A stretch of 64,000 nt of DNA. Source: Longimicrobiales bacterium. Its GTDB lineage: Bacteria > Gemmatimonadota > Gemmatimonadetes > Longimicrobiales > Gaopeijiaceae. Location: contig OZ242008.1 of assembly GCA_965204735.1 (NCBI GenBank), positions 2,592,001 to 2,656,000 of the forward strand. Direction: 5' to 3'. Each line of letters starts with the position of its first letter. The stretch's first letter is position 1. A program made the translations under genes and the position numbers. Positions 10,001 to 49,700 of the stretch are shown in pieces. The notes beneath the pieces were generated by a model. The model was not told where the DNA came from. It worked only from the letters and a program-made list of their open reading frames with translations, and made no database searches.

Positions 10001-13000
10001 GTGCCGCTCGCGTATGCCGCCTGCCGCGTCTGCGAACCAATCCTCAACGCCAACTGCGGCGTGCCCGTCACGCTCGCCGGACCGCTGAACACCACGACCG
10101 CGCGAATCGTTTCGCCGCGCTCGAACGTGTCGCCCACCACCGGAGCGTCTATCGTCAACCCCGTCACATACAGCGCGTTGCCCGCCACCTTGTGCGCCCC
10201 AGCGTTCGTCACCGCGTTCGACCCCAACCCCAGGCTCGCCGCCGCCGTCCCGCCCGCCAGCACGATCGTCCCGCCGTTCAGCGCCAGCGCCGTCGAGTCC
10301 ACGCTGATCCCGTCCGCGTCCACGTCCGTCGCCACCACCGTGTGCCGAAACGCCAGAACGTCCGTGCCCGTCCCGCTCGCGTACGACGCCTGCACCGTGT
10401 CGCTCCCGATCCGCAACGCCAACCGCGGCGTGCCCGTCACCGTCACCGCCCGATCGAACGCCACCTCCACCTCGATCACGTTCCCCGCCGCATACGTCGA
10501 GTCCGGACCCGCGTCGCTCGTTATCGTCATGCCGCTCACGCCCGGCGCCGTCTCCTTGCCACCGTCCACCTGGAACAGCACGGAGTTCGCAAAGTTCCAC
10601 GGCGACAAAGACAGGTTCGCGTCCCCCGTCGTGCCCTGCCGCCGGATCGTCGACCCCGACGGCAACGTCAGCGCGTTCGCCCCGATGCTGATCCCCGTCG
10701 AGTCCCTGTCCGCCGCCACCACCGTGTAGCAGAACACCACGATCGTCTCGCCCGACTTGTCGCAGTACGACGCCTGCCGCGTCTGCGAATCGATCCCCAG
10801 CGCCACACGCGGCGGCTGCGCACCCGCTTCCACGTCCACCGCCACGTTGAACCCGACGCCCACCCGAATCACGTCCCCAAGCCCGAACACGCTGTCCGTG
10901 CTCGCGTACGAAAGCCCAGTGTTGTCAGCGTCCAAGAAGAACACGCTCGCCACTACAGGAACGTACGCGCCCCACACCTGGTGCGCCGCCGCGTCCGCGA
11001 TCGCGTGGCTCCCCAGCGCCAAGTACGCGTTCGTCGTGCCGCCCGATGCCCTGATCGTCCCGCTGTTCAGCGCCAATGCGCTCGCCCCGATGCTGATCCC
11101 CGTCGAGTCCCTGTCCGCCGTCACTACCACATATTGGAACACCAGCGAGTTCGTGCCCGTCCCGCTCGCGTACGCCGCCTGCCGCGTCAGCGTGTCGACC
11201 TCCAGAGCCACCTGCGGCACGCCCGTCACCGCCACCGTCGAGTCGAACGTCACCGTCACCTCCACCGTGTCCCCAGCGGCGTAGATGCTGTCAGCGCCCG
11301 CGTCGCTCGAAATCGCCAGCCCCGTCACCATCGGCAACCCCTGCGAGCCGCTCACCTTGTGCGTCGCCGCGTTCGCGATCGCGTGGCTCCGCAACCCCAA
11401 GTACGCGTTCACCGTGCCGGACCCCGCCCGCCTGATCGTCGTCCCCGCCGGCAGCGTCAGCGCGCTCGCTCCGATGCTGATCCCCGTCGTGTCCGAGTCG
11501 GCCAACTGCACCACGTAACGGAAGGTCAGCGAATCGCCGCCCGTCCCGCTCGCGTAGCTCGCCCGTCGCGTCTGCGTCCCGATCGTCAGCTCCAGCCGCG
11601 GCGTTCCCGTCACGTCCACGTTCTCGTTGAACACCAGTCCCGCCTCGATCGTGTCGCCCAACGCATACGTGCCGTCGCTCCCCGCGTTGCTCGCAATCGA
11701 CGCGCTCGTCACGTGAGGCACCGCCTGAGCGCCGTTCACCTTGTGCGCCGAGAGGTTGACGAGCGGCGTGAAGTCCAAGAACGCGTTCGCCGCGCCCGCC
11801 GGCGCTCCGGGCGTCCTGATGTAGTCGCTTCCGCCCACCGTCATGCTGTCGACGCTGAGCCCGTCCGCGTCCAAGTCGGCCAGCACCGGATTGTACCGCC
11901 AGTGAATGGTTCTCGTGCCAGGGTTGACGTTCTGAACGTAGCCCTCGCGGACATTCTCTCCAATCGTCAGCCACAGGCCCGAATTCGCCGTCGTAACCGC
12001 CGCATTAAACGTCCGATCGAACACCACGAAGAAGTCGATGATGTCGCTCATGGCCCACGTCTCGTCGGACCCCGCGCCGGTGGGCAACGTAACGCTCGCT
12101 ATCTTGGGCACTTCCCACACACGGTGCGCACGGTCGTCCGTGGCGACGTGGTTCCACAAGCTCAGGTACACGTCCGTGCCCGCCCTTCTGATCGTACCGC
12201 CGTTCAGCGTCAGAGCATTGCGCCCGTAGCTGATCCCGTTCGTGTCGTTGTCTCCCGGCGCCACCACGTAGTTGAACCTCAGCGTTGTCGTGCCCGTCCC
12301 CGACACGTAGCTCGCCTGCACCGTCGACGACATTATCAGCGCCAGCTGCGGCGTACCCGTCACGTCCACCGCTCGGTTGAACACGACCTCTATCGCGATC
12401 GTGTCCCCCTCCACGTAGATGCTGTCGGCGCCCGCGTCGCTCGTGAACGACGTGCCCGTCACGATCGTCGCGCCCGACGTCAGCACCTTGTGGGCCGCCG
12501 CGTTCGCCACAACGAAGTTCACTATCGACAGCGTCGCGTCCACCGCCGCGCCCGCCCTTCTGATCGTCCCGCCGTTCAGCCCCAGCGCACTCCCCCCGAT
12601 GCTCAACCCGTCCGAGTCCGCGTCGCCGCTCGCCACCACGTAGCGGAACGTCAGCGAATCCGTCCCCGTGCCGCCCGCGTAGCTCGCCTGCCGCGTCTGC
12701 ACGCCGATCCCCAGCGCCAGACGCGGCGTGCCCGTCACGTCCACGCTCTCGTTGAACACCACCGCTACTTGCACCGTGTCGCCCGCCGCATACGTGCTGT
12801 CCGTCCCCGCATCGCTCGTGATCGGCATCCGCACCACCGCCGGCGGCCCCGCCAAACCATCCACCTTGTGGGCCGCAGCTTCGGCGACCCTGTGGACCCG
12901 CAAGCCCAAGTACGCGTTCACGACGCTGCCAGCCCGCCGTATCGTCCCGCCGTTCAACGTCAGGGCGCTCGAGCCGATGCTGATCCCCGTCGAGTCGACA

Positions 13001-14967
13001 TCCCCAGGCCCTACCAAGTAGCGGAACACCAGCGAATTGCCTCCGCTCCCCAGAGAGTAGACCGCTTGCCGTGTCTCCGTCCCCATCGCCAGCGCCAGCC
13101 GCGGCGAGCCCGTCACGTCCACGTTCTCGCTGAACCAGAGGCCGATCTCGATCACGTCGCCCCGAGCGTACGTGCTGTCGTTCCCCGCTTCGCTCTCAAT
13201 CGTCGTGTTCGTCACGTGAGGCACCGCCTGAGCGCCGTTCACCTTGTGGGTGACCGTGTCCGTAAGAGTCACGGCTGCAAGCGAGTTGTCCGCGTCAACC
13301 AAGGTGCCCTCGAGGCGGACGGTGCCCGTGTTCGTCAATGCGCCCGCCGGCAAGCTTATGCCGTCCTCGTCCAAGTCCGCCTCCGTCACCAAGTATCGAA
13401 ACCATACGGCCCAGGGGTTCTGCTGGAACGGCATCGCCGTCACCGTGTCCTCCCCGATCTCGATCGCCAGCCTCATCTGCTGCCACGTCGGCTTGTCCAC
13501 CCGGTCGTTCCACGTGAGCCGCAACGCGAGGTAGTCGCCCGCAGCGTACGTGCGGTCGCTCCCCGGGTCCGTCTCGATCGGGAAGTGTATGGGGGCCATG
13601 GACGGCCTGCGCGCAACCTGGTGGTTCCTGTCGTCGCCGATCGCGTGGGCCCCCAACCCCAGGGTCGCGTTCACCGTGCTCGACCCCGCCCGCCTGATCG
13701 TCGCCCCCGACGGCAGCGTCAGCGCCGTCGAGTCCACGCTGATCCCGTCCGCGTCCCTGTCGTTGGACGTCCCCGGCACCACGTAGCGGAACCTCAACGA
13801 ATCCGTCCCCGTCCCCGAAACGTAGTCCGCCTGCCGCGCCAGCGTGTCGACCGTCAGGGCCAGCTGCGGCGTCCCCGTCACGTCCACCGAGTCGCTGAAC
13901 ACGACCACGACGCTGATCGTGTCCCCCTGCACGTACGTGCTGTCGCTCCCCGCGTCGCTCGTGATGCTCACGCCGCTCACGCTCGGCGCCGTGATCACCT
14001 TGTGCGACGCCGCGTTCGCGATCGCATGGTTGCCCAGGCTCAGGACCGCGTCCTTCGTGCCGAGCCTGATCGTGCCGCCGTTCAGCGCCAGCGCGCCCGC
14101 GCCGATGCTGATCCCGTCCGCGTCCAAGTCGCCCGCCACCACCACGTACCGGAACACCAGCGACGCCGTTCCCGTCCCACTCGCGTAGTTCGCCTGCTTC
14201 GTCGCGCTCCCGATCCCCAACGCCAGCTGCGGCGTGCCCGTCACCGCCACAGTCGAGTCGAACGCCACCGTCACCGCTATCGTGTCGCCAACATTGTACG
14301 TGTTGTCGGCGCCCGCGCTGCTGGATATCGTCACCCCCGTCACCTTCGGATACCCAGCGGTGGCGTCCACCTTGTGCGCCGCAGCGTTCGTGATCGGGGT
14401 CACGGCCTTGTTGCCCTGGTTTCCATTGTTGTCATATAGCTGAAAACGGTGTATCGCGTCCGCGGCGATGCTGATTCCGTCCTCATCCAAATCCCCTCCT
14501 TGCACAATATACAAGAACTCCACCCAGTCAGTACCACCATCAGTCCTGGACGTCAACTGTGGACAATCGCCGCCACTGCTGGAAGTAGTTGCGCAGGCTA
14601 CTCGCGTCGCCGACCCAATCGACAAATTCATTCGGACGTACCCCGAAGACAAGTCTATGGTTTCGTTACCCCAGATCCTCACCTTGATGGTGTCGCCCAG
14701 CCCATATGTGCTGTCCGTCCCCGCCGAGCTGACGATTTTCATGCTGTCCACCCGTAGGGTGGTTTGGGCACTCAGCGAGCCCGGCCCCACTAGTAGTAGG
14801 AGCAGGCCGAGGACCGCGATTGCGGTTCTGGCTACCGGCATCGCGCGGGCCTCAAACGCTCGGGCTAGGCTAGCCAGTCGGCCGGCCCCCCGGGGAAGGG
14901 GGGGGGGGGGGGGGGGCAAATTTGGCTTGACTGACTGACAGGCTTCTGATCTTGCTTCTTCCAGCAT
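1033..14967 (-). CDS. Giant (up to 4644 aa) autotransporter-like surface adhesin: signal peptide, 26 ~125-aa Ig-like repeats, 5 cadherin domains, 1 further Ig-like domain and a C-terminal beta-barrel
   Basis: Signal-like MPVARTAIAVLGLLLLLVGPGSLSA-Q (alternative start at 14841). Repeated D-T-I-x-V-x-V-x-F...VTGTPQLALxIG...YASGTGT...F-x-Y-x-V...D-x-DG-(I/L)-S-(I/V)...HKV units. Cadherin motifs such as ENxxG...ATDPD...LxYxL...VNExPxF. C-terminal WTLWGQ...YVGLDYRF...LYPYLSW region typical of autotransporter barrels, ending ITFK. Confidence 0.85.
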   Translation of the reverse strand: MLEEARSEACQSVKPNLPPPPPPLPRGAGRLASLARAFEARAMPVARTAIAVLGLLLLLVGPGSLSAQTTLRVDSMKIVSSAGTDSTYGLGDTIKVRIWGNETIDLSSGYVRMNLSIGSATRVACATTSSSGGDCPQLTSRTDGGTDWVEFLYIVQGGDLDEDGISIAADAIHRFQLYDNNGNQGNKAVTPITNAAAHKVDATAGYPKVTGVTISSSAGADNTYNVGDTIAVTVAFDSTVAVTGTPQLALGIGSATKQANYASGTGTASLVFRYVVVAGDLDADGISIGAGALALNGGTIRLGTKDAVLSLGNHAIANAASHKVITAPSVSGVSITSDAGSDSTYVQGDTISVVVVFSDSVDVTGTPQLALTVDTLARQADYVSGTGTDSLRFRYVVPGTSNDRDADGISVDSTALTLPSGATIRRAGSSTVNATLGLGAHAIGDDRNHQVARRPSMAPIHFPIETDPGSDRTYAAGDYLALRLTWNDRVDKPTWQQMRLAIEIGEDTVTAMPFQQNPWAVWFRYLVTEADLDEDGISLPAGALTNTGTVRLEGTLVDADNSLAAVTLTDTVTHKVNGAQAVPHVTNTTIESEAGNDSTYARGDVIEIGLWFSENVDVTGSPRLALAMGTETRQAVYSLGSGGNSLVFRYLVGPGDVDSTGISIGSSALTLNGGTIRRAGSVVNAYLGLRVHRVAEAAAHKVDGLAGPPAVVRMPITSDAGTDSTYAAGDTVQVAVVFNESVDVTGTPRLALGIGVQTRQASYAGGTGTDSLTFRYVVASGDADSDGLSIGGSALGLNGGTIRRAGAAVDATLSIVNFVVANAAAHKVLTSGATIVTGTSFTSDAGADSIYVEGDTIAIEVVFNRAVDVTGTPQLALIMSSTVQASYVSGTGTTTLRFNYVVAPGDNDTNGISYGRNALTLNGGTIRRAGTDVYLSLWNHVATDDRAHRVWEVPKIASVTLPTGAGSDETWAMSDIIDFFVVFDRTFNAAVTTANSGLWLTIGENVREGYVQNVNPGTRTIHWRYNPVLADLDADGLSVDSMTVGGSDYIRTPGAPAGAANAFLDFTPLVNLSAHKVNGAQAVPHVTSASIASNAGSDGTYALGDTIEAGLVFNENVDVTGTPRLELTIGTQTRRASYASGTGGDSLTFRYVVQLADSDTTGISIGASALTLPAGTTIRRAGSGTVNAYLGLRSHAIANAATHKVSGSQGLPMVTGLAISSDAGADSIYAAGDTVEVTVTFDSTVAVTGVPQVALEVDTLTRQAAYASGTGTNSLVFQYVVVTADRDSTGISIGASALALNSGTIRASGGTTNAYLALGSHAIADAAAHQVWGAYVPVVASVFFLDADNTGLSYASTDSVFGLGDVIRVGVGFNVAVDVEAGAQPPRVALGIDSQTRQASYCDKSGETIVVFCYTVVAADRDSTGISIGANALTLPSGSTIRRQGTTGDANLSLSPWNFANSVLFQVDGGKETAPGVSGMTITSDAGPDSTYAAGNVIEVEVAFDRAVTVTGTPRLALRIGSDTVQASYASGTGTDVLAFRHTVVATDVDADGISVDSTALALNGGTIVLAGGTAAASLGLGSNAVTNAGAHKVAGNALYVTGLTIDAPVVGDTFERGETIRAVVVFSGPASVTGTPQLALRIGSQTRQAAYASGTGTPSLVFQYTVVQADVDADGLSVDAGALTLNGGTVRRQQTTVNALLDLTGRTIANHSGRKVAGGTLTAATVAGVSISSAPASDSTYGRTERIEVEVTFNRRVVVTDTPQVALTIGSQTRQAEYTSGTGTKTLTFGYAVVAADADANGISIGASALALNGGTISDARDGSTAAGLGLGSYAIANAAAHKVDGAQGPPGVTGLAVASPPVGDTFERGDVIAATVTFNRAVDVTGTPQLALGIGSQTRQASYASGTGTTALVFQYTVVTADVDADGLSIGTTALALNSGTIRLSGGTLDATLGLGTHSVTNSTGHKVAGGTFTASSVSGVTISSAPSSGDTYGLGEEIEVEVTFVRSVNVTGTPQLALTVGAAARQAEYASGSGTATLTFGYEVVAADADADGIGVGASALALNSGTINDARDGSTAASLGLGSSAITNAASHKVDGALGPPGVTGLAIGSPHVGDTFERGETIEVKVAFNKSVAVTGTPQLALGVGSATKQASYAAGTGTDTLVFRYVVVTADEDSTGISIGTSALALNGGTIRVSGGTTDAVVSLRDHYVTDNGNYKVAGGTFTAAAVSGVTIASAPSSDSIYGRTEVIEVEVGFTRPVTVTGGPQLALGIGSQTRQASYASGSGTNTLAFGYTVVATDEDSTGISIGASALTLNGGTIADARDGSTAASLGLGSSAISNARAHKVNGSVGPPGVTALSISSPTVGDTFERGETIEVALAFTRAVDVTGTPQLALTIGSATRQAEYASGTGTDTLAFQYVVASGDADSDGLSIGASALALNGGTIKVAGGTLDALLALGSNAVTNSAGHKVAGGTFTTPAVSAVTISSAPAADSTYKLGESIEVKVAFGRPVAVTGVPRLALTIGTQTRQAAYDSATSKADTLVFEYAVRPADTDTVGLSIGASALTLNGGTIADVRPGSAAAALSLGSHAVTNAAAHKVDGSQGPPGVAGLSVAAPLVGGTFERGDTVVATVTFNKQVDVTGTPQLALSIGTQTRQAGYASGTGTAALVFRYVVVQADVDTDGLSVGASALALNSGTIDVAGGTTDALLSLAHHAISNHGALRVAGGTFTAASVSGVSIASSPADGSTYGLSEEIEVEVTFNRHVSVTGAPQLALTIGSQTRQAAYDSATSVGAGGRVLTFQYTVQSSDSDANGLSIGASALALNGGTISDARDGSTAAGLGLGSHAITNASGQAVDGSQGPPGVSGVSIASPPVGTTFERGDTIIATVTFNKAVDVTGTPQLALTIGAATKQASYASGTGTASLVFRYVVVTADVDADGLSIGASALALNGGTIDVANGTVDAVLGLGSHAVTNSAGHKVAGGTFTAASVSGVSLTSSPAVGTTYARGEQIEVQVTFNRRVAVTDTPQVALTVGAATRQADYASGTGTHTLTFRYTVVAADADTDGIEVGASALALNSGTINDARDGSTAAALGLGSHALSAAAGHKVDGTLAGASVTGVAVSSTPESGDTYGLGERIEVQVTFDRAVTVTGAPQLALTVGTATRQASYVGGSGTATLSFAYRVQGAGSGGSGTGGVDADADGVGVAAAALTLNGATIVNTADGVRPAVLALGSHAIAAAANDKVDGTVEAVPAVMAMAVTSTPGASGLYGPSSVIRVTVTFSRPVEVVGAPQLSIEIGTAVRQASYVSGSGTPMVVFEYVVQPADRDEDGISIPADALTATGGAALRIAGGTMAATLDLSGHEVENLEEHQVNGAGGTDPVFGRAEYEFELTEDVAGPVVVGTVSATDPFGGEVAYSLAAGDEGLFEVDARTGEVRYVGTGEDAESRSEFVMIVRATADDGERTGDATVTVRLVNVNDAPVFTAERYAFAMAENAAGPLALGVVEAVDLDEGDTLTYRLAAGDADRFAVDSVTGAVRYVGGGEDYEGAGPKSWELEVTATDLAGSSARALVAVALTNVNEGPAFADSAYAFDLAENERGPLLLGEVRATDPDGGDWLSYALTAGDAERFKVNATSGAVRYVGSGEDAETGPGSWELEVTATDRGGLTARTRVVVTLEDQNEGPVFVEPIWEWELAEHVAGPVELGAVQATDVDAGDTLRYSLSGAGAALFDVGESSGVVRYVGAGEDAETGPDGWEFEVVATDRAGLAAVAKVRVLLLDVNEAPAFVDSAYAFDLAENVRGPRELGRVEATDPDRDDALTYSLAQGDRGRFDVDGASGRVRYVGAGEDYEDGPPEFALTVRVTDGGGLTAEARVVVTLLDVNEGPEAVGSLSPPVLEVSGAPWEVGLGEYFRDPDGDALSYVVASSSPDVAAASVSGAGRLSVAPREIGATVVTVTATDAGGLTATQQASVTVSASRADRARALKLTLAAFGRSLGTETVETIGGRLGLEPSGSPGGSHVQLGGRSLSCLAFGGGRGSGGVSSGTASSRTFGDGGAAGDADADQGPGESAEASTAAAHAGSGRCGLESLVRDATGLLGFQITHPGVAGGSAGGTLDLAAIFFGDGATGMGVAGSGSLGQGGSYQGQREEGALPAERERGGIAFSPLTGRDLRSRSSFQLSFGGSGGEQGNADADGADAAPSQTASQAGWTLWGQANVGQFEGRPEDDFAMDGRTRSAYVGLDYRFGSGFLMGLAGSRSDVAANYESGINGVGKTKAHLTSLYPYLSWSSQGGFGIWGLAGAGMGAANVGEVGPPTYDADLRMRMGALGVRQKLVGGLALKADAFAVRMMTDASNGHVAAVTADAQRVRLAPELGGQWTSGSIAMRTRIEVGGRYDRGDAETGMGAEAGADLGFTHEGSGLSLDARGRMLLIHQDRNFKDWGAAVALRIQPRREDGGLSFSLEPSWGNASGGAQTLWQGGADVWRTAGVPGLGAPAPAAQPGAVPAGGDQAGHGGTTGPGGPASPGAGPTHGFPSAHGFGAPQNARGWAPDGLAMEVGYGLALPGGGQLKPFGRWSREGAAGYRLNVGTQWATLGGETAEQQASGLRLVMDFFGEQATDGFQPPERRVGLAGTITFK
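14898..14916. repeat. 19-nt G homopolymer (poly-C on the coding strand)
   Basis: Counted directly as 3+10+6 consecutive G; encodes the PPPPPP run of the long N-terminus. Confidence 0.95.
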
Positions 14968-26027: not shown

Positions 26028-26129
26028 GGTCGCTTCTCCTTTGTTCGCGGTGGCGGCCCCCGGAATCTAGCTAGCTAGCCGCCTTTGGCCGGCGCTTGGG
26101 AAGCGACGGCTGGGCGTCGGCTCCGTCCA

Positions 26130-27251
26130 CTACCGCCCCTCCGCGTCGCTGCTGCCGGCCACGGCCAGGAACTCGTCGGCAGTGTCGCACTCCACGACCG
26201 CGTCCCCGACCCGCGCCAGCTGCTCGGCGCTCATGGAGCGCACCCGCGCCTCCAGCCGGCGCGCCGTCTGGGCCCCGAACCGCCGCGAAGCCAGACGCAG
26301 CAGCAAGACCGCTCGGCCCTCCGCACGCCCCTGCTCGAGCCCCCGTTCGAGCCCCTGTGCACGTCCTCGTTCGAGCCCCTGTTCACGTCCCCGCTCGAGA
26401 CCCTGCTCCAGGCCCCGCTGCCGGTGGCCCTCCGCCCACTCCGCATAGGTCTGGCCCATCTCTTTCTCCTCCTTCGGTTGGATGATCTGCTCCACGATGT
26501 CCTGACGTGCCTCCTCCGGCACCCCCGCCACACGCAGCCGCTCGTCCGTCCAGTCCGCGAACGCCTGCCGCTCTGCAAGATAGTCCGGGCCGGCCCACTG
26601 CTCCGCCATGCTCTGGTGCACCGCCGGAAAGTTCGTCCACGGGTCCTCCTCCAGCGCCGCGACCCAGCCCAGCACGCTCTCCCTGGGAAGCAACCCTTGC
26701 GCCAGCGCCGACCGCAAGTCAAGCAGCCCGTAGCCGTGAGTGGTCGCCAAGCCGGCGACCGCCCGCGCCACAACCGGCGACGGCTTCTCCCTGGCGGCCA
26801 GCCCGGCCAACGTCGTCTCGGCCGTCCATGGCCGCGTGCCGGTGTAGACGACGAACGAGAGCACGAGGGGCATGGCGCCGTCGGGGTCGCGCTGGCGCTC
26901 GAGCGTGTGCAGCACCGTGTAGGCGGCCTCGGTGTAGCGCAGCGTCCTGAGGACCATGCCCGGATCGACCGAGGACTGGAACTCGAAGAGGAGGACCGCC
27001 GATCGACCGTCCTTGAACCGGACGCGCCAAGCGCAGTCGCAGAGCCGGCGCCGCAGGTCGGGGCCCACGGTCTCGGTGGGGAAGGGGTCGGCGGCCGGCA
27101 GGTCGAACTCGTCGGCCCAGCCCATGGCCGCGAGGTCGCGGACGAGGGCCACGCCGCCGCCCGTCGTGTTGAAGAGGCGCTTGTAGCTCTGGTCGTGGCG
27201 GCGGCGTTCGGGCTTGGGGAGATTGGGCGGTTTGCTGGTGGAGGGGTCCAT
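26130..27251 (-). CDS. Rpn/YhgA-family recombination-promoting nuclease (putative transposase) with C-terminal DUF4351-like domain, copy 1
   Basis: HDQSYKRLF, RRLCDCAWRV, LLFEFQSSVDPGMVLRTLRY and PLVLSFVVYTG motifs; GLEQ/GLER repeats; LLLRLASRRFG...SAEQLARVGDAVV tail. Confidence 0.88.
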   Translation of the reverse strand: MDPSTSKPPNLPKPERRRHDQSYKRLFNTTGGGVALVRDLAAMGWADEFDLPAADPFPTETVGPDLRRRLCDCAWRVRFKDGRSAVLLFEFQSSVDPGMVLRTLRYTEAAYTVLHTLERQRDPDGAMPLVLSFVVYTGTRPWTAETTLAGLAAREKPSPVVARAVAGLATTHGYGLLDLRSALAQGLLPRESVLGWVAALEEDPWTNFPAVHQSMAEQWAGPDYLAERQAFADWTDERLRVAGVPEEARQDIVEQIIQPKEEKEMGQTYAEWAEGHRQRGLEQGLERGREQGLERGRAQGLERGLEQGRAEGRAVLLLRLASRRFGAQTARRLEARVRSMSAEQLARVGDAVVECDTADEFLAVAGSSDAEGR

Positions 27252-27403
27252 GGCGGCGGCTCCAGTGCGTCCGAGACGAGAGGCGCTTCGGAGGCGTCGC
27301 GGACGGAGTTCCCCCGAAGCTGGCCGGGACGGTCTCCGGCCCTGGTCCTCAGTGTCTCACCGAGGATGCGCCATTTCCATGGCTGGATGGGACAGATTTT
27401 TTT
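27252..27403 (-). ncRNA. Candidate structured leader or ncRNA upstream of Rpn copy 1
   Basis: 152/152 identical to 45134-45285; contains consecutive hairpins (see findings). Confidence 0.4.
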
Positions 27404-28607
27404 GTCTCCTCCGGGCTGGTCCGTCGTCGCCTCGGGGCTGGTCTGGAGGCCCCGTGCGTCCCATGAACTGGGCGGCTGAAGCTCCTCCGGCACCTGGACC
27501 GCCGCCGGCCGCTACCGATTCCAAGAGACCCTCGAACGCGTCCGCCGTCCGGTCCCAGGTGAAGGTCTCGGCCATCGCCCGGGCCGCCCGGCCCATGGCG
27601 TCTCTTGCGTCGGGCGGCAGCACGCGGGCCAGAGCCGCGGCCAGGGCGTCCACGTCGCCGTGGGGCACCAGCAGGCCCGTTTCCCCGTGGCGGACCGTCT
27701 CCCGCAGTCCCGGCGAGTCCGACGCAACGGTGGGAGTGCCGCACGCCGACGCTTCGACGCTGGCGATCCCCCAGCCCTCCTTGGGAGAGGCGAGGGCGTG
27801 CACCCACGACCTGGACAGCAGCTCCCGCTTCTCGTCCTCGGGGACGAAGCCCGCGAAGCGGACCCGGTCGCCCATGCCCAGCCCCGCGGCCAGCCGCTCC
27901 AGATCCTTCCGGGCGCGTCCCTTCCCCGCGACGACGACGTTGAGCGGCGTTCCCCTGTCCGTCAGCCGGGCCGCCGCGCGGAGCACCAAGTCCACCCGCT
28001 TGTACTTCTGGAGCCGGCCCAGGAAGACGACCGTGGGCTCGGGGAACCGCTTCGACGCCGGCCAGAGCCGATCGAGGTTCACGCCGTTGCGGACGACCTC
28101 GAAGCGGGACGGCTCCAGCCCCCTCCGGAGCAGGTCGTCCCGGGTGCTTTCGGAGACGGCGACGCAGGGAAGGCCCCGGTAGGCGGTCGGGACGACGCGC
28201 TCGAAGAGCCACGTTGCGCCGGCCAGAACCCAGTTGGCCTCGCGGAAGGCGGTGGCGCCGAAGAGGTGGTGCACCAGAAGGAGGCGAGCCGGCGCCCGGG
28301 TCCAGAGGGGCGCCAGAATGGGAACCTTGTTCAGGTCCTCCACCAGCACGTCGAATGGCTCGTCCGCCAGTCGGCGCTCGTACTCCAAGGGTCCGGCGAT
28401 GTTGAATGTGTAGCGGCGGCCCGCTCGGTGGACTCGAACGCCGTCCACGTCGGCCACCCGTTCGCACCTGGGCCAGCCCGAGCACAGCAGCGTGACCCGA
28501 TGCCCGCGCTGGACCAGGCGGCCGAAGACCTGGTGCAGGTGCTCCTCGGCGCCGCCCGCCGCCGGATTGAGGCGGTCCAGCCAGTTGACGACGAGGATGC
28601 GGAGCAT
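27357..28607 (-). CDS. Glycosyltransferase family 4
   Basis: MLRILVVNWLDRLNPAAGGAEEH, VFLGRLQKYKRVD and KEGWGIASVEASACGTPTVAS (ExxG...E motif). The C-terminus runs into the Rpn leader. Confidence 0.92.
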   Translation of the reverse strand: MLRILVVNWLDRLNPAAGGAEEHLHQVFGRLVQRGHRVTLLCSGWPRCERVADVDGVRVHRAGRRYTFNIAGPLEYERRLADEPFDVLVEDLNKVPILAPLWTRAPARLLLVHHLFGATAFREANWVLAGATWLFERVVPTAYRGLPCVAVSESTRDDLLRRGLEPSRFEVVRNGVNLDRLWPASKRFPEPTVVFLGRLQKYKRVDLVLRAAARLTDRGTPLNVVVAGKGRARKDLERLAAGLGMGDRVRFAGFVPEDEKRELLSRSWVHALASPKEGWGIASVEASACGTPTVASDSPGLRETVRHGETGLLVPHGDVDALAAALARVLPPDARDAMGRAARAMAETFTWDRTADAFEGLLESVAAGGGPGAGGASAAQFMGRTGPPDQPRGDDGPARRRQKNLSHPAMEMAHPR

Positions 28608-41462: not shown

Positions 41463-43567
41463 GAGCCTTCCGCCTCGCCGAACTCCACGAGCACCTGGTC
41501 CTTCTCCACAGCCTGCCCCGGCGAAACCCGCACCTTGGCCACGCGCGACGCGGCGGTCGCCCGCAGCTCGTTCTCCATCTTCATCGCTTCGACGACCGCT
41601 ACCCGATCGCCCGCATCCACGACGTCGCCCTCGGCGACTGCGACCTGAACGACCATGCCGGGCATCGGCGCCTTGAGGGACGGGGCGGGTCGGGCGACCC
41701 TGGCCGCGCCCGCCAGCCTTCGCACGGCCGCGGCGCGCGCGTCCAGCGCCTCGAGGGCGAAGGCGCGCCCGTCCAGCTCCAGCTCCCAGGCGCCCGAGCC
41801 GGCGCCTGCATGGCGAGCCAGCACGTGGTGGGAGGCGCCGTCGATCAGCAGGGAACAGCCGCCGGGGCAGCCCGCAGTCGCCAGGGACGCCTCGCATCGG
41901 CGGCCGTCCACCTGCACGCTGCCGTCCGGACCGACGACCACGTCGTGCTCCTTCCCGCACAGGGCGACCACGTAGCGGGCGTGGCCGGCGGGTGCGGGGC
42001 CAGCCGCCGCCGGAGCGCCGGACGGGGCGGATGCCGGACCGGCGGCCGCGTCGAGTCCTTGGCCGTACGCCGGGGACCGACGCCACGCCGGAAAGCGCTG
42101 CCCGGCCGGAAACCGCCGCCCGGCCTCCCCAATCCGACCAGCGGAGCGCTCGCTGCGCCTCTTGTGCTCCAGGAGGGCCGCGGCGACAAGAAGTGCGGCC
42201 CGCCGACCGTCGGCGAGAGCGTCCTCGAAGAGCGCCGGGTGGTCGTCCAGGTAGCTGGTGGACAAGCGTCCTGCGAGGAAGTCCGGCTCCGCCAGGACGC
42301 GGGCCAGGAGGGGAGCGCTGGTGGACACGCCCCCGACCCGCAGCTCGGCCAGCGCGGCCTTCATCCGCCGGACGGCGGCGGCCCGGTCCCGTCCGTGGGC
42401 CACGAGCTTGCCCAGCAACGGGTCGTAATGGAGGCCGACCTCGTCGCCCGCGGCGACTCCCCCGTCCCAGCGGACGCCGGGACCGCCGGGCACGGTCAGC
42501 TCCCGCACCACGCCGGTGGAAGGCAGGAAGCCGTCGAACGGGGACTCGCTGGTGATCCGGCACTCGATCGCGTGTCCCCGCAGGGGAACCTCTTGCTGGC
42601 GAAGGGGAAGCGGCTCGCCCGACGCGACCCGAATCTGCCACTCCACCAAGTCCAGGCCCGTGATCATCTCGGTGACGGGGTGCTCGACCTGAAGGCGCGT
42701 GTTCATCTCCAGGAAGAAGAACTCGCCGTCGTGATGAAGGAACTCGACGGTTCCGGCCCCGACGTACTCCACCGCTCGGGCCGCGCGCACCGCCGCCTTG
42801 CCCATTCGCTCGCGCTCCTCGGGTCCCAGGAGGGGCGACGGGGCCTCTTCCAGCAGCTTCTGGTGCCTGCGCTGGACCGAGCACTCCCGTTCGAACAGGT
42901 GGACAACGTTGCTTTGGTGGTCGGCGAACACCTGCATCTCCACATGGCGCGGGCGCTCCAGAAAGCGCTCGACGTACACGCGGCCGTCGCCGAACGCCGC
43001 CTGCGCCTCTCGGGCGGCGGCCTCGAAGGCCGGCCGGAGCTCCTTCGCCTCCCGGACGACCCTCATCCCCTTTCCGCCTCCGCCGGCGGCCGCCTTGAGC
43101 ACAACGGGGAAGCCGGTCTCTCGGGCCGCTTCTTCCGCATCTCGGCCCGACGCCAGCGGCGAGTCCGTTCCGGGCACGACGGGCACGCCGGCGGCCCTCA
43201 TGCGCCGACGAGCCTCCGTCTTGTCGCCCATGGCGCGAATCGCGGCGGGAGACGGGCCCACGAAGATCATCCCCGCCCGCTCCACCGCCTCCGCGAAGTC
43301 GCCCCGCTCCGCCAGGAAGCCGTAGCCGGGATGGAGCGCGGAAGCGCCGCACCGAGCGGCCGCGGCCAGGAGCTTGTCGATCGCAAGGTAGCTCTCGGCG
43401 GCCGGCGCCGGGCCGATCGGGTAGGCCTCGTCGGCGTGAAGGACGTGGGGCGCCGTCCGGTCCGCCTCCGAGAAGACGGCGATCGCGCGAACCCCCAGCG
43501 CTCGGGCGCCCCGGATCACCCGCAAGGCGATCTCGCCCCGGTTGGCCACCAGCACGGACTCGATCAA
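41459..43567 (-). CDS. pccA: Acyl-CoA carboxylase alpha subunit (biotin carboxylase + biotin carrier), probably propionyl-CoA carboxylase
   Basis: [41 protein letters not shown] and EAMKME biotin site. TTG start at 43567. Confidence 0.88.
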
Positions 43568-43902
43568 CGGGCTGCGACCACTCCTGGGCTGGATGGGCTG
43601 GAGAACGCCGGGCGCGGGGGACGAAAGGCGGGAGGTGCTCCCGCGCCCGGCCCGGCTCCGGGGCGCCGACTCGGCTCCGGGGGCGCCCGACTCCAAGAAA
43701 GATTGCCGCCGGCCCCCGCGGAAGGTCAATGGTCCTTACGCGGAGGGCGAGCCGTGGGCTTGGCATTGTCGCGGCAGACTTCAGCCGCGCAATGCCACGG
43801 CGGAGGTCGAGCCGTGGCGCCCAGCACCGCTCGGCCGAGCAGACCGCCGGGAAGGTCGAGCGGTCCCGGTCCCCGCCCGGCGGCGCTCTCGTCGGGCGCG
43901 GG

Positions 43903-44823
43903 CTACTCGACCGTGCCCGATGCGGTCGTCTCTTCGCCGTCCCTCCAGATGCGGAACCGAATCTCGTCGCCTTCCTCGTAGGAACGGAGGATGCGGCGGA
44001 ACTCCTCCTCGTCCTCCACCTCCCGGCCGTCGATTCCGACCACCACGTCGCCGGGGCGCAGCCCCAGGGCCGAGGCGTCGTCCGCGTCCGCCACCAGAAC
44101 TCCCGTCTCGATCCCGAAGTAGGCCCCGAGCTCCGGATTCATCGCCACCAGGTCCAGCCCGTGAACGCGGCCTCGCCCAATGCGCAAGACGGCGTTGAAG
44201 TCCGACATGTCCGGGGCTTGGAGGCGCTGCATGCGGATGGTCCAGTTGCGGCTGTCCCGAAGCCGGTCCCCCAAGTCGCGAAGGCGCTCCGGGTAGTCGG
44301 GCCCGAAGCCGGACCACCTGGCGTCGCCCGTCCACTCCCACTCCTCCGGCGTCGCCGCAAGGGTCAGCTCCTCGCCGTCGCGGCGCACGACCAGCTCCAC
44401 GGCCTCGCCCGCTTCGGCGTCCTTCAGCAGGGCGATCAGCCGCTGAGCCGGAAAGGAGCGCTCGTCCTCGAACTCCCGTTCGACGGCCTCGTCCAAGGGA
44501 AGGCCCAGACCGCGACCGTCGAAGGACACGATCACGTCGCCGGCCTCTACCCCCGCCTCCGCCGCGGGACCGCCGGAGCGGACCCCGCTCACGCGCACGC
44601 CGACGGAGTCCAGCTCGCGCTCCATCTCCATGGAGAGCAGCACGCCCAGCACGGGGGGGCGCCGGCCGTCGAAGAACCCCGACGGCGCCCGCGCCGCTCC
44701 CTGTCGTGCCCGTCGCCGATCTTCCTCCTGGGCCGACGCGAGCGCCGATGCGCCACCGATCCCCCAGGCAAGGACCAGTGCTCCCGCCACGCCGACCCGT
44801 CCCAGCTTCGCCGTTCCCTTCAT
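43903..44823 (-). CDS. Exported protein with two PDZ domains
   Basis: Signal peptide after a [37 protein letters not shown] and [13 protein letters not shown] motifs. Confidence 0.85.
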
Positions 44824-45004
44824 CCTTCGTCCTCCCTCTGTCTTGAATTGAAGCGTCATGCAGCGACCTGAAGCCTGTCTTGAAGCGACTTCCGGCTGCG
44901 AACAATGGGACGCGGGAAAGGCGAAGAAGAGTTGTCCGCTTCTGTCGGGGGAAGGGAAGTCTCTGTTGGGGAAGGGGGGAGGGGCTCTCGGGAAAGTGGG
45001 AAAG

Positions 45005-45092
45005 TGGTGGCAAAATGGTAGTAAAATGATAGCAAAATGGTAGTAAAATGGAGGCATTATGGTAGTGTAATGGTGGCAAAACGGTAGTAGAA
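45005..45092. repeat. Eight tandem 11-bp units, consensus TGGT(A/G)G(T/C)AAAA
   Basis: tggtggcaaaa tggtagtaaaa tgatagcaaaa tggtagtaaaa tggaggcatta tggtagtgtaa tggtggcaaaa cggtagtagaa. Confidence 0.9.
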
Positions 45093-45133
45093 CGGTTGTC
45101 CTGCATCACGGGGGTCAGCCCCAGAGGCGACGA

Positions 45134-45285
45134 AAAAAAATCTGTCCCATCCAGCCATGGAAATGGCGCATCCTCGGTGAGACACTGAGGACCAGGGCCG
45201 GAGACCGTCCCGGCCAGCTTCGGGGGAACTCCGTCCGCGACGCCTCCGAAGCGCCTCTCGTCTCGGACGCACTGGAGCCGCCGCC
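45134..45285 (+). ncRNA. Candidate structured leader or ncRNA upstream of Rpn copy 2
   Basis: Identical to the reverse complement of 27252-27403; contains several hairpins. Confidence 0.4.
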
Positions 45286-46491
45286 ATGGACCCTTCCACC
45301 AGCGAACCACCCTCTCTCCCCACGACGGGACGCCGCCGCCACGACCAGAGCTACAAGCGCCTCTTCAACACGACGGGCGGCGGCGTGGCCCTCGTCCGCG
45401 ACCTCGCGGCCATGGGCTGGGCCGACGAGTTCGACCTGCCGGCCGCCGACCCCTTCCCCACCGAGACCGTGGGCCCCGACCTGCGACGCCGGCTCTGCGA
45501 CTGCGCTTGGCGCGTCCGGTTCAAGGACGGTCGATCGGCGGTCCTCCTCTTCGAGTTCCAGTCCTCCGTCGATCCGGGCATGGTCCTCAGGACGCTGCGC
45601 TACACCGAGGCCGCCTACACGGTGCTGCACACGCTCGAGCGCCAGCGCGACCCCGACGGCGCCATGCCCCTCGTGCTCTCGTTCGTCGTCTACACCGGCA
45701 CGAGGCCATGGACGGCCGAGACGACGCTGGCCGGGCTGGCCAGCAGGCAAGAGCCGTCGCCGGTCGTGGCGCAGGCGGTCGCTGGCTTGGCGACCACTCA
45801 CGGCTACGGGCTGCTTGACTTGCGGTCGGCGCTGGCGCAAGGGTTGCTTCCCAGCGAGAGCGTGCTGGGCTGGGTCGCGGCACTGGAGGAGGACCCGTGG
45901 ACGAACTTTCCGGCGGTGCACCAGAGCATGGCGGAGCAGTGGGCCGGCCCGGACTATCTTCCAGAGCGGCAGGCGTTCGCGGACTGGACGGACGAGCGGC
46001 TGCGTGTGGCGGGGGTGCCGGAGGAGGCACGTCAGGACATCGTGGAGCAGATCATCCAACCGAAGGAGGAGAAAGAGATGGGCCAGACCTATGCGGAGTG
46101 GGCGGAGGGCCACCGGCAGCGGGGACTCGAGCAGGGGCTCCAGCAAGGACTCGAGCAGGGACTCGAGAAGGGGCTCGAACGGGGACTTGAGCAGGGACTC
46201 GAGCAGGGGCTCGAACGGGGACTTGAGCAGGGACTCGAGCAGGGACGTGAGCAGGGACGTGAGCAGGGGCTCGAACGGGGGCTCGAGCGGGGTCGCGCGG
46301 AGGGCCGAGCGGTCTTGCTGCTGCGTCAGGCTTCGCGGCGGTTCGGGGCCCAGACGGCGCGACGGCTGGAGAAGCGGGTGCGCTCCATGAGCGCCGAGCA
46401 GCTGGCGCGGGTCGGGGACGCGGTCGTGGAGTGCGACACTGCCGACGACTTCCTGGCCGTGGCCGGCGACGGCGACGCGGAGGGGCGGTAG
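45286..46491 (+). CDS. Rpn/YhgA-family nuclease (putative transposase) with DUF4351-like C-terminus, copy 2
   Basis: Same motifs as copy 1. It is 28 aa longer because of seven additional 4-aa repeats. Confidence 0.88.
   Translation: MDPSTSEPPSLPTTGRRRHDQSYKRLFNTTGGGVALVRDLAAMGWADEFDLPAADPFPTETVGPDLRRRLCDCAWRVRFKDGRSAVLLFEFQSSVDPGMVLRTLRYTEAAYTVLHTLERQRDPDGAMPLVLSFVVYTGTRPWTAETTLAGLASRQEPSPVVAQAVAGLATTHGYGLLDLRSALAQGLLPSESVLGWVAALEEDPWTNFPAVHQSMAEQWAGPDYLPERQAFADWTDERLRVAGVPEEARQDIVEQIIQPKEEKEMGQTYAEWAEGHRQRGLEQGLQQGLEQGLEKGLERGLEQGLEQGLERGLEQGLEQGREQGREQGLERGLERGRAEGRAVLLLRQASRRFGAQTARRLEKRVRSMSAEQLARVGDAVVECDTADDFLAVAGDGDAEGR
46078..46491 (+). CDS. Putative internally initiated small protein (RpnS-like antitoxin), 137 aa; equivalent in copy 1 is 26130-26459 (-), 109 aa
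   Basis: AAGGAGG at 46063-46069, 8 nt before the in-frame ATG at 46078. The same arrangement is present in copy 1. Confidence 0.6.
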   Translation: MGQTYAEWAEGHRQRGLEQGLQQGLEQGLEKGLERGLEQGLEQGLERGLEQGLEQGREQGREQGLERGLERGRAEGRAVLLLRQASRRFGAQTARRLEKRVRSMSAEQLARVGDAVVECDTADDFLAVAGDGDAEGR

Positions 46492-46597
46492 CGGACGGAG
46501 GCGACGCCAAGCCGTCGCTTCCCAAGCTGGACAAAGCCGACAGGGGCCGCACCGCTGGGCTGACCCCAACGCTCGCCCACACCACCACTAGACTAGA

Positions 46598-48145
46598 CTA
46601 GAGCGGGATGTTTCCGTGCTTCTTCGGAGGGTTGGAGTCCCGCTTGGCGGAGAGCATGTCGAGGGCGTTGATCAGTCGGGGACGCGTTTCCCGAGGGTCG
46701 ATCACGTCGTCCAGGTAGCCTCGGGCCGCGGCCTCGTAGGGGTGGGCGAACTTCTCCCGGTACTCGGCCATCCTCGCCTCGGTGGCGGCCGCCGGGTCGT
46801 CGGAGGCGGCGATCTCCTTCCGGAAGAGGATCTCGACGGCCCCCTTGGGACCCATCACGGCGATCTCGGCGGAGGGCCAAGCCAAGTTCACGTCGCCTCG
46901 GACGTGCTTGGAATTCATTACGTCGTAGGCGCCGCCGTACGCCTTGCGGGTGACGACCGTCGCCTTCGGGACCGTCGCTTCGCAGAAGGCGTACAGGAGC
47001 TTGGCGCCGTGGCGGATGATCCCGCCGTGTTCCTGGCTGGTGCCGGGCAGGAACCCGGGCACGTCCTCGAAGACGACCAGAGGGAGGTTGAAGGCGTCGC
47101 AGAACCGCACGAAGCGGGCCCCCTTGTCGGAGGCGTCGATGTCCAGCACGCCTGCCAGCGCCGCCGGCTGATTGGCCACGACGCCCACCGCATGACCGCC
47201 CAAGTGGGCGAACCCGGTCACCAAGTTCCGGGCGAAGCCTGCGTGGACTTCGTAGAAGACCCCGTCGTCCACGACTGCGCGGATCACGTCCAGCACGTCG
47301 TAGGGGTGGTTGGCGTTCTCGGGGACGATCTCCAGGAGCGCCGGGTCCCGCCGGTCGTGGGGGTCTGTGCCGTCGCCGGCGGGCGGTCGTTCGGCGTTGT
47401 TTTGGGGGATGTAGCGGAACAGCTCCCTGACGGCGTCCAGGCTTTCGGCCTCCGTGTCGTGGGCGAAGTGCGCCACGCCCGAAGTCTCGGCGTGGACGTC
47501 GGCCCCCCCCAGGCCCTCCATGTCCACGTCCTCGTGAGTCACCGCCTTCACCACGCCCGGCCCCGTGACGAACATGAAGCTGGTCCCCCGCACCATGTAC
47601 ACGAAGTCGGTGATCGCCGGCGAATAGACGGCGCCCCCGGCGCACGGACCCAGCACGACGCTGATCTGGGGGATCACCCCGGACGCCAGCGTGTTGCGCA
47701 GGAAGATGTCGGCATAGCCCCCCAGCGACACGACGCCCTCCTGGATGCGCGCGCCCCCGGAGTCGTTGAGGCCCACCAGCGGCGCCCCGTTCTTCAGCGC
47801 CATCTCCTGCACCTTCACGATCTTCTCGGCGTGGGCTTCGCTGAGGGAGCCGCCGAAGACTGTGAAGTCCTGGGAGAAGACGTACACCAGACGTCCGCGG
47901 ATCGTGCCCCAGCCGGTGACCACCCCGTCGCCCAGAACCTTCTTGTCGGCCAAGCCGAACTCGCTGCAGCGATGGGTGACGAATCGGTCCAGCTCCACGA
48001 AGGACTCGGCGTCCAGGAGAAGGTCCAGACGCTCCCTGGCCGACAGCTTGCCGCGCCGGCGCTGGGCCTCCAGGCGAGCCTCGCCTCCGCCCAGCGCCGA
48101 TTCGCGCCGGAGCGCCTCCAGACGCTCCAGGGCAGCGCGGCTCAT
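46598..48145 (-). CDS. pccB: Acyl-CoA carboxylase beta (carboxyltransferase) subunit
   Basis: [48 protein letters not shown] and C-terminal [10 protein letters not shown]. Confidence 0.93.
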
Positions 48146-48149
48146 CGGA

Positions 48150-49700
48150 TCAGCGGCCGACGGGAGCCCGGGCGCCGGGACCGGCGTCGGCGGGGACCAC
48201 TCCGGCTTCCTGCGGTTCCAGCGGGTGGACGGCGCCGTCGAGGAGCCGCACCGGAAAGAACTCCTTCGTCAGGGAGCCGCCCGCGGCCGAGTAGGCGCCG
48301 GTCGCGCCCTCGAAGCGGTGGAGTCCGGCCAGCGCCGCGGCTGGACCCGCCCCGGTGCGCGCGCGCTCGGCCCAAGCGGCCAAGGCGATCCGGAGGAGGT
48401 CGAAGCCGGCGGCGGGAACGGGGCTGCGAAGCGCCTTTTGCAGGTGGTCCTCGTAGGCGGCCGTGAACTCGGCCGACCGCTCCGAAGTCGATCCGGGAGG
48501 GACCGCGCTGACCGCCACGACGTGGTCGGTGTGGCGCCGGTCGACCTCTTCCAGCACTCGCGGATCCGTCCAGCCCGCCGTTCCCGCGACCTGGATGTCC
48601 GTGTCGTCGAGCTCGAAGAACGATATCTGGGGCGCCAGCAGCAGCAGGTCCTCGGGAGGCGCCAGGACGACCAGGAGTTCCGGGGCCATGAGCCCGGCTT
48701 CGCGAAGGGGCTCTTCGAAGGTGGTGGTCCCGGGCTCGTAGGCGATCCTGCGGGCGAAGCCGCCCGCGCCGGCGAACTCGTCGAGGAAGGCGGCGGCCTC
48801 CATGGAGCGAGCCGGGCTGCGGGAGTGGACGACGAGGGCGTCGACGTAGCCCAGGCCGGAGAGCGCCGCCGCCAGCGTGCGCGCCGCGGAGGGGCCGCCG
48901 GCCGCGAGGCTGTGGACGCCGAGGCGGCCCGGCGGAAGAAGTCGGGCGGTGGGCGAGAAGAGAGGCACGTCGTCGGGCAGAACGTCCGCGACGGCGGTCA
49001 AGTTGTCGCCGGCGAGGGGACCCAGGACGGCGGCAACCCCTCGGGCCGCCAGAGCCGACGCCGCCTGGGCGCTGCCGTACGCCGTGCCCCTGCCGTCCTC
49101 GACCACCAGCTCGACCGCCATGCCGCCCTGCCGAGCCAGCGCGACGCCCACCTGAACGCCCTCCAGGAAGAGGTCCGCGTACTCCTGGTCCCGCGGCCTG
49201 CCCGTCAAGGGGAGCACGACGCCTACGACGGGCGGGGCCACTTGCGCGTCCAGGGCGTCGGCGCCCGCCGTCCGCGCCTGAGCGGCGTAGCGTTGCGAGA
49301 CTCCGGCTTCGCCAGAGAGCGCGAACCGCAGGGCCAGCTCGGCGGCGACTGCGCCGAAGCGCGGGTCGCGGAAGCGCACGTACCCCGAGTCCGCCATGCC
49401 GGCCAGCTCCTCGACTGCGTGACGACCCAGGCGCGACACTGCCGCGGCCACGCGCTCGGTCGCCCGGGCGGTCCGGTCCCCCGGAGGAAGCGCAAGGAAG
49501 GCGCGAGCGGCTTCGCGGTACCTGGCTGCCCTGAAGAGGGTCTCCGCCGGCTCGTCCACCGTGTCGCGGGACTCGGCCGGCGCAAGGGAAGCCGCTTGGT
49601 CGCCGGAAGACGGCGGACCCGAGTCGCGCGGGTGAACCGCTCCCGCCGCGCAGCCCAGCGCCCAGCCGACCAGCAGCAACCCGAGCGGTCTCGCCTTCAC
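48150..49700 (-). CDS. Lipoprotein with periplasmic binding-protein type 1 fold (LppC/LpoA-like)
   Basis: Lipobox [21 protein letters not shown] and FEGATG motifs. Confidence 0.75.

Follow-up and report, generated by a model that had tools for sequence, protein, structure and literature searches.

A probable competence/recombination-type promoter associated with multiplied rpn nuclease genes in Longimicrobiales

Two genes for Rpn nucleases in a Longimicrobiales genome are preceded by the same 152 non-coding nucleotides. Within the 64,000-nt stretch of DNA that we analysed (the window), sequence comparison confirms that positions 45134-45285 equal the reverse complement of 27252-27403 at 152/152 positions, and an Rpn ORF follows each. 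The original prediction described a hairpin-rich leader that could be a cis-regulatory RNA, a nuclease-associated RNA or a structured DNA end. What kind of element is it, and why does it accompany rpn? The best explanation is that the first ~58 nt are a promoter and the other ~93 nt a 5' UTR, both belonging to an rpn gene that has multiplied recently and encodes a predicted toxin-antitoxin nuclease. We give a probability of about 0.8 that a promoter of competence/recombination type, carried by rpn genes, is the real feature behind the conserved leader. Our reading, from genome sequence, is that rpn toxin-antitoxin nucleases appear to ride a previously undescribed competence/recombination regulon of Longimicrobiales; "competence" is a label from gene content, and natural transformation in this lineage is an assumption.

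The Rpn genes

The plus-strand gene (45286..46491) encodes RpnL, a PD-(D/E)XK nuclease of 401 aa in which D20, D72, E90, Q92 and R102 are invariant in 6 aligned homologues; these residues were matched to D11/D63/E82/Q84/R94 of RpnA by motif order, not by alignment to RpnA. The second RpnL (26130..27251, minus strand) has 373 aa and an internal ATG at 26459. Both ORFs match Pfam Transposase_31 and DUF4351 (Transposase_31 E 5.7e-12, above cut-off), and PADLOC had no relevant model for Rpn. The first gene also contains a predicted RpnS antitoxin of 137 aa (46063..46491, plus strand), with an internal Shine-Dalgarno (SD) sequence at 46063-46071, an ATG at 46078 and 12-nt (4-aa) repeats at 46118-46292. 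The antitoxin role of such an internal start is described in the available text of Zhong et al. (10.1101/2023.05.02.539157). The internal SD and ATG are kept in 11/11 copies. The closest named homologues are titled Longimicrobiales, Gemmatimonadota, and a metagenome scan with the Rpn protein returned no confirmed relative.

Copies of the leader in the genome

The source genome (G000; 4.14 Mb, 69% GC) contains 11 leader copies, each starting at an A7 tract. All 11 stand before an rpn gene and solitary copies number 0, so the predicted association of leader and nuclease gene held genome-wide. The description of the leader as perfectly conserved did not, since four copies are identical, six have 92.1-98.7% identity and one is a partial copy of 96 nt, shortened by a deletion that reaches into the gene. 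The substitutions said to be scattered through the coding sequences are real but few in the window pair (only 15/790 sites differ), and the two genes also share an identical run of 162 nt. The early coding differences were correctly noted: the first ~16 codons (48 coding nt; window 45301-45330) are hypervariable among copies and also among strains in public DNA runs. When four DNA runs were mapped to 42500-49000, 0 contigs spanned an empty site, and the summed depth of leader and gene was ~ten-fold or more (contigs only).

Over the ten full copies the leader is no more conserved than third codon positions, with diversities of 0.045 for the leader, 0.043 for the coding sequence and 0.049 for third positions. 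This diversity is unevenly distributed along the leader: 0 in positions 1-26, 0.127 in positions 27-58 and 0.030 in positions 59-152. Among the four copies whose leaders are identical, 36/790 coding sites vary and no 152-nt coding window is invariant (P about 0.0008 for 0/152 leader differences against 36/790, for a group picked by leader identity), and three B-type copies, a group likewise defined by leader identity, have 1 leader difference and 31 coding differences. Such leader-uniform sub-groups fit patchy conversion as well as selection on the UTR.

Recent duplication or gene conversion by itself, with no selection anywhere in the 152 bp, would agree with the equal diversity of leader and coding sequence over the ten copies and with a mosaic copy at G000 726815. 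The original prediction had allowed for recent conversion, and duplication or conversion does account for much of the identity. As a complete account it is nevertheless highly improbable, because boxes 1 and 2 of the motif described below are invariant in the ten copies and are kept across rpn clades and genera; duplication and conversion thus explain the 152/152 match, not the motif. Recent spread, patchy conversion and selection on the boxes together are the best explanation of the identity between copies.

Architecture of the probable promoter

Weak BLAST matches of the first 30 nt of the leader led to the same word before recA, a pilin gene and unrelated rpn genes. An alignment of 101 non-redundant sites resolves this word into an A-rich stretch (A enrichment at offsets -7 to -4), GTCCCAT at offsets 0-6, GCCAT at 10-14, YGYCC at 20-24, and, in 56 sites, A at 38 with T at 42. 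The 101 sites have no conserved -35 position, and a plain scan for sigma-70 consensus promoters and for terminators found 0 and 0. In the window, an UP-element-like A7 tract (45134..45140, plus strand), whose role would be that of an UP element, lies at about -60 to -54. It is followed by boxes 1 and 2 (45144..45158; consensus GTCCCAT-YCR-GCCAT; about -49 to -35; invariant in 10/10 full copies), by box 3 (45164..45168; here a two-mismatch variant of YGYCC; about -29 to -25) and by a -10 element of the NAnnnT type (45181..45186), which falls inside the second of the predicted hairpins. The three boxes are at about -49, -39 and -29, and the weak -10 stands at a fixed spacing. The second promoter copy occupies 27351..27403 on the minus strand, with A7 at 27403-27397, boxes from 27393 and the -10 at 27356-27351.

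The position of the transcription start was derived from host genes. Among 20 motif-bearing host genes, chosen by us (14 pilB, 2 recN, 2 recQ and 2 pilin-like), 18 start at offset 48-52 without an SD-like word. This leaderless signature places the predicted start in the window at about 45192..45196 (plus strand). With this start, hairpin 1 coincides with boxes 2-3 of the promoter, and the -10 element falls within hairpin 2. Homologues keep the boxes and the -10 but not the two hairpins, which are disrupted there (in 17 sequences, 71.8% of cells are paired for hairpin 1 and 40.4% for hairpin 2).

Association of the promoter motif with rpn genes

In G000, 21/23 rpn ORFs of at least 300 aa have the motif within 400 nt, compared with 39/2829 called genes; the matrix used for this count included five rpn seeds. 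In three of the 21 motif-bearing rpn promoters the canonical offset has no -10, and one of the two exceptions without the motif has lost boxes 1-2 and kept box 3 and the -10. In two other genera (G158, G165 and G176), the motif was found at 19/20 rpn loci fetched, of 24 matches. Among the best 80 Rpn homologues from all species genomes, it precedes 24/27 genes titled Gemmatimonadota and 0/51 others, with two lacking upstream sequence.

Boxes 1-2 are kept across genera and across rpn clades whose proteins are only 24-47% identical. In a quick tree of 95 Rpn proteins, motif-bearing genes fall into six or more well-supported clades with two label changes; the motif may have joined rpn genes once or several times, both being compatible with this tree. 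We also observed that lexA is directly followed by an rpn gene in G000 (1440377-1440979) and in G002 (L290), the two rpn genes belonging to different clades.

Host genes with the same promoter motif

A matrix trained on 12 sites unlinked to rpn recovers 33 G000 sites that score above 25 bits, and the reversed genome yields 0. Besides the 12 seeds, 20 of these sites are linked to rpn and one is an orphan. The non-rpn targets are genes for SSB, RecA, ComM/YifB, ComEA-PilT-PilC, pilin-GspH, PilB, SecA-RadC, a C39 peptidase and small unknown proteins. The asparaginase-obg-dprA operon (in G000, G001 and G002) and recQ (in G000) are preceded by weaker sites. A shared site lies upstream of DNA uptake and processing genes (comM, comEA-pilT-pilC, pilin, pilB, ssb, recA, radC and dprA operons). 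The regulon also holds genes unrelated to uptake, namely secA, asparaginase-obg and small coiled-coil and peptide-system genes, and in G000 no site lies directly before comEC, uvrA or recN, which may belong to operons. In other genomes, where 55/84 called proteins were scanned, targets include recN, recQ, pilB, pilins, comM, YraN, integrases and PIN toxins.

The motif pattern occurs in 32/41 sampled genomes of the order, with four control matches altogether, and reaches 39, 31, 49 and 43 occurrences in G000 and its congeners G001, G002 and G003, respectively. In a sample of the phylum it was found in 11/16 genomes of the family and in 6/131 genomes outside the order, once in each. At individual genes, the motif exceeds the control in 14/14 loci with ssb in view (the other 12/26 loci had no ssb in view) and at 8/9 pilB loci, with three partial matches left out, and it scores at least 9 bits at 15/29 recA loci, where the control maximum is 6.4. 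At comM of family f2 it is absent (four loci, 7.3 bits or less). In the complete, motif-less genomes G008 and G168, comM, a PilB orthologue (E 1e-120), rpn and the LexA paralogue discussed below were all not found. Thus, judged from these comparisons, a three-box motif at a fixed distance from a predicted weak -10 is common to rpn genes of several deep clades and to uptake and recombination genes in two families of the order.

At recA, the motif promoter lies upstream of a separate TTCG-N7-TTCG box, which also occurs in tandem before lexA; the motif is thus separate from the SOS box. The TTCG-N7-TTCG element, in tandem before lexA (G000 1441069-1441102) and once before recA (2495315), is kept in other families (L194, L196 and L202). 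It is likely the SOS box of this lineage, and we found no published description of it in the literature searched.

The 5' UTR

With a start at 45192, the predicted transcript leader is the last 94 nt (45192-45285); the second UTR copy (27252..27345, minus strand) matches the first. All the stems originally listed can be drawn. The leader folds weakly better than shuffled sequences overall (z -2.31 for 157 nt, z -1.67 for 152 nt), but this comes only from hairpin 2 (z -3.72 for the first 59 nt), and the part predicted to be transcribed is no more stable than its shuffles (z 0.06 to 0.33; 0.06 for 45192-45285). Two helices fall within the UTR. Stem A, GGCCGG..CCGGCC (45196..45215, plus strand), is moderately kept without a compensatory pair; its pairing is alignment-dependent, at 95.6% for the outer four pairs in 17 sequences and 72.2% for six pairs in 18 sequences. 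Stem B (45217..45252, plus strand) is the only well-kept helix, paired in 89.2% (17 sequences) and 88.3% (18 sequences) of cells, with G-U, A-U and G-C exchanges at one position in three species. The inner hairpin of stem B is paired in only 55-66% of cells, and two small hairpins in 53-55% in 18 sequences.

The UTR might nonetheless act as a cis-regulatory RNA that throttles RpnL besides the promoter, with stem B, and perhaps stem A, lowering translation or protecting the 5' end. The pairing of stem B, a covariation score above that of 498/500 shuffles, which relatedness alone can yield, and the sub-groups with leaders more uniform than their coding sequences, which leave room for selection on the UTR, are consistent with this. 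However, pairs changed on both sides (one of them in stem B) number three against a shuffle mean of 2.5 (232/500 shuffles), and only 1/5 homologous UTRs folds below z -2. An RNAalifold consensus of 16 UTRs (-8 kcal/mol) recovers neither stem B nor the stems originally listed, Rfam gave no credible family match for the leader, and the stems do not cover the SD of RpnL (GGAG, 45274..45277, plus strand).

The UTR is also narrowly distributed, which counts further against this role. In G158, G165 and G176, rpn UTRs range from none to about 140 nt and are unrelated to that of the window. Homologous UTRs are present in G003 and L391-L393, and among the matches listed for 120 sampled genomes of the order, which include no rows for the congeners G001-G003, none outside G000 was full-length. 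We consider a throttling UTR unlikely, though stem B may have a modest role. A dedicated structured RNA of 152 nt is not supported: the start predicted downstream of hairpins 1-2, the stability of the transcribed part and the comparison with third positions over ten copies are three outcomes that the original prediction had itself named as refuting, and compensatory change does not exceed the shuffle control. What stands of the original proposal is a regulatory element that travels with rpn and has one kept UTR stem; as an RNA discovery the finding is weak. A LexA-like box seen by eye inside the UTR was dropped, its spacing not being kept in homologues.

Insertion sites and mobility

Both rpn sites of the window are empty in congeners. 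The insertions are specific to the lineage, and their ends are ragged. Insertion 1 (about 1.43 kb; site empty in G001 and G003) lies in the last codons of a glycosyltransferase gene and has a 6-bp repeat at both ends. At its 3' junction (26067..26083, minus strand), the repeat of the left junction is followed by (CTAG)3, the displaced glycosyltransferase stop codon; the interrupted ORF (27357-28607, minus strand) has lost its stop to the insertion and continues for about 48 codons more, until a TGA that lies within the rpn promoter. Insertion 2 (site empty in G001, G002 and G003) has at its 3' junction (46587..46602, plus strand) a 5-nt repeat, present 3.2 times, at the stop codon of a convergent carboxyl transferase gene.

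The A7 tract, taken originally as the beginning of the leader, is where the copies start, but it is not a fixed end. Depending on the copy, shared sequence extends 0 to ~95 nt further upstream, and the 3' tails stop at different points. The minus-strand copy has an extra ~95 nt upstream of A7 (27404..27500), 76-84% shared with four other copies and missing from the copy at 45134. The leader-rpn copies thus show neither the fixed ends, the terminal repeats nor the constant target duplication of an insertion sequence, and the available text on rpn likewise describes variable ends without terminal repeats or target duplications for these genes generally (10.1101/2023.05.02.539157).

Eleven dispersed copies, lineage-specific insertions and the 6-bp and CTAG repeats at junctions could also be expected if the leader were a structured DNA end, similar to those of IS or REP elements, recognised by Rpn for mobilisation. 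With ragged ends, one rpn gene that lacks boxes 1-2, the same motif at single-copy housekeeping genes, and terminal repeats and target duplications not known for rpn, we regard this function, also put forward originally, as very improbable.

Several repeats were recorded in the course of this analysis. CTAG is depleted in this genome (1273 observed, 3835 expected), which contains six triple CTAG-type repeats: at the two rpn 3' junctions of the window (26067-26078 and 46587-46602) and at G000 737195, 901611, 3243007 and 3686335. In three further rpn copies, the end coincides with a CTAG stop codon of the host. An AT-rich tandem array of an 11-bp repeat (45001-45096) adjoins the leader and is not part of other rpn copies; it recurs at at least six other intergenic sites, often near defence-like genes (G000 101850, 670400, 2466840, 2681660, 2712870 and 3712080). 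The window also contains an ORF of 4644 aa (1033-14967, minus strand) whose internal repeats have matches at a G003 locus.

Candidate regulators

The best candidate for the regulator, though a tentative one, is a non-cleavable LexA paralogue (G000 2154096-2154740, minus strand). It is found order-wide, at 43% identity or more in 24/31 genomes, all motif-rich ones included, and its helix-turn-helix is nearly invariant (G000; L357-L371). Family f1 no longer has the cleavage site and catalytic Ser/Lys, f3 has mostly lost them, and in f2 they are intact. The paralogue was not found in G008, G168 or four genomes outside the order; the co-occurrence is weakened by G168, which lacks other regulators too. 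Two observations count against the candidate: f2 has a paralogue with the same recognition helix yet no motif at comM, and G021 has the motif at recA while no paralogue was found there.

Site layouts of lambda CII, CtrA, PhoB and AraC served as comparisons for the candidate list. Three RpoD-like sigma factors are present in 26/26 genomes. The OmpR family was set aside because it is represented only by PhoB-like proteins, which the motif-less G008 also has, and the AraC family because its counts do not discriminate. The canonical LexA SOS box was rejected since lexA has the different TTCG-N7-TTCG repeat and no motif.

The regulon could alternatively be a LexA-independent DNA-damage response, a PafBC-like sigma adaptation in which single-stranded DNA produced by phage or damage would induce rpn as a defence. 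The targets do include recA, ssb, recN, recQ and radC, recA has two promoters, and, compared with the mycobacterial GTC, the G-N-C of box 3 is shifted one base away from the -10. In addition, G000 encodes a PafB/PafC-like tandem WYL pair (3223984-3226201, minus strand) that keeps DNA-reading arginines, the PafB helix residues matching R46, R50, K52 and R56.

Against this, the pair is patchy (16/41 genomes of the order) and a PafB-like gene was found in only 2/29 further genomes, a distribution mismatched to the motif; it was not found in the motif-rich, near-complete genomes G102, G117, G158, G159, G165, G167, G176, G178 and G012. The PafBC (RecA-NDp) promoter, tGTCgg-N10-tA-N3-T, also differs from the YGYCC, 11-nt gap and two upstream boxes seen here, and the available text on PafBC promoters describes none with upstream boxes (PMC8635444). 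Pilus and uptake genes are, moreover, the most constant targets. PafBC was thus rejected as the regulator, and we find a damage response of this kind rather doubtful, while a damage signal may act through another regulator.

Separately, in every listed copy of a multicopy IS transposase gene (about 17 sites, e.g., G000 257825, 340330 and 1892202), a LexA-like box lies 50 nt before the start codon, and this IS is possibly under SOS control.

Relation to known systems and a possible mechanism

In E. coli, rpn genes may be induced by Sxy; the literature searched did not show such an induction. The genes described here share with known RpnL-RpnS nucleases (Rpn/YhgA-like, PF04754) the PD-(D/E)XK residues, the internal SD and ATG, the 4-aa repeats, the many copies and the variable ends, as far as the available texts describe them (PMC5350276; 10.1101/2023.05.02.539157). 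They differ in that 21/23 full genes are on a host regulon promoter; the main texts of these two papers, in the parts available, mention no promoter motif, regulon or competence link.

The CRP-S/Sxy regulon of gamma-proteobacteria, as described in the text available (PMC1635313), has the same content of pil, comE, comM, dprA, radC and ssb and one activator site near -41. Here, there is no palindromic CRP-like site and instead three direct boxes with a period of 10-11 bp, one of them inside the spacer; the phylum is another, and recA, recN and recQ are included. According to the accessible part of 10.1101/330480, toxTA of H. influenzae and hicAB of E. coli are likewise toxin-antitoxin genes, horizontally acquired and controlled by a competence promoter, whose antitoxin can also be made by a second, internal route. 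They are single loci, whereas here a whole multicopy nuclease family is concerned, in several clades and genera.

The PafBC/RecA-NDp promoters of actinobacteria, from the portions of the sources available (PMC8635444, PMC6789036), resemble ours in having an activator element at a fixed distance, a bare -10 without a -35, a second promoter at recA and many leaderless targets, and a PafBC-like pair exists in G000. The motif differs by two extra upstream boxes, a box 3 one base further out and the lack of co-occurrence with the WYL pair. The DdaA regulon of Moraxellaceae couples repair genes and defence systems through one activator in the same way (PMC12392091, as far as its available text goes), but with a palindromic site and a WYL protein, whereas uptake-pilus genes dominate here. 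The literature searched, mostly without subscription papers or supplements, described neither the motif nor a competence regulon in Longimicrobiales, nor any control of rpn by competence.

We propose that an activator would bind the boxes flanking the -35 region, so that the housekeeping polymerase would fire the regulon promoters together. Full-length RpnL would then be made while the competence/recombination programme is on, and RpnS from the internal start would restrain it. With less confidence, nicks made by RpnL might provide 3'-OH ends from which rpn-bearing DNA is inserted by template switching. The 3'-OH ends left by RpnA can prime polymerase, and overproduction of RpnA promotes RecA-independent recombination, according to the text available (PMC5350276), which makes nick-primed insertion during DNA uptake plausible. 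Template-switch insertion from RpnL nicks could account for copies without terminal repeats, and we hold it to be possible at less than even odds. The shared promoter suggests that rpn may be switched on at DNA uptake and spread by the same route. The fullest version, in which rpn genes are selfish nuclease-antitoxin modules on a host competence promoter, make the nuclease only during DNA uptake and recombination, insert in that period by nick-primed template switching and are activated by a LexA paralogue that has lost self-cleavage, is improbable as a whole; if true, it would account for the multiplication of genes that are not transposases and would reveal a new type of competence regulator.

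The timing of rpn expression and the multiplication of these genes without transposase features are stated as open questions in the available text of 10.1101/2023.05.02.539157. A promoter of uptake and recombination genes that is kept across rpn clades and genera makes both directly testable. The analysis also defines a regulon and a promoter grammar for a mostly uncultured order and indicates a candidate regulator.

Other multicopy families that carry the motif elsewhere are marked by the same promoter, namely GxxExxY, Uma2, DUF559, four-helix-bundle and CCDC90-like families. The CCDC90-like genes, which are multicopy and encode small membrane-anchored coiled-coil proteins, were observed with this promoter at L231, L234, L236, L237, L238, L243, L254 and L257, and at G000 2383466 and 1736797.
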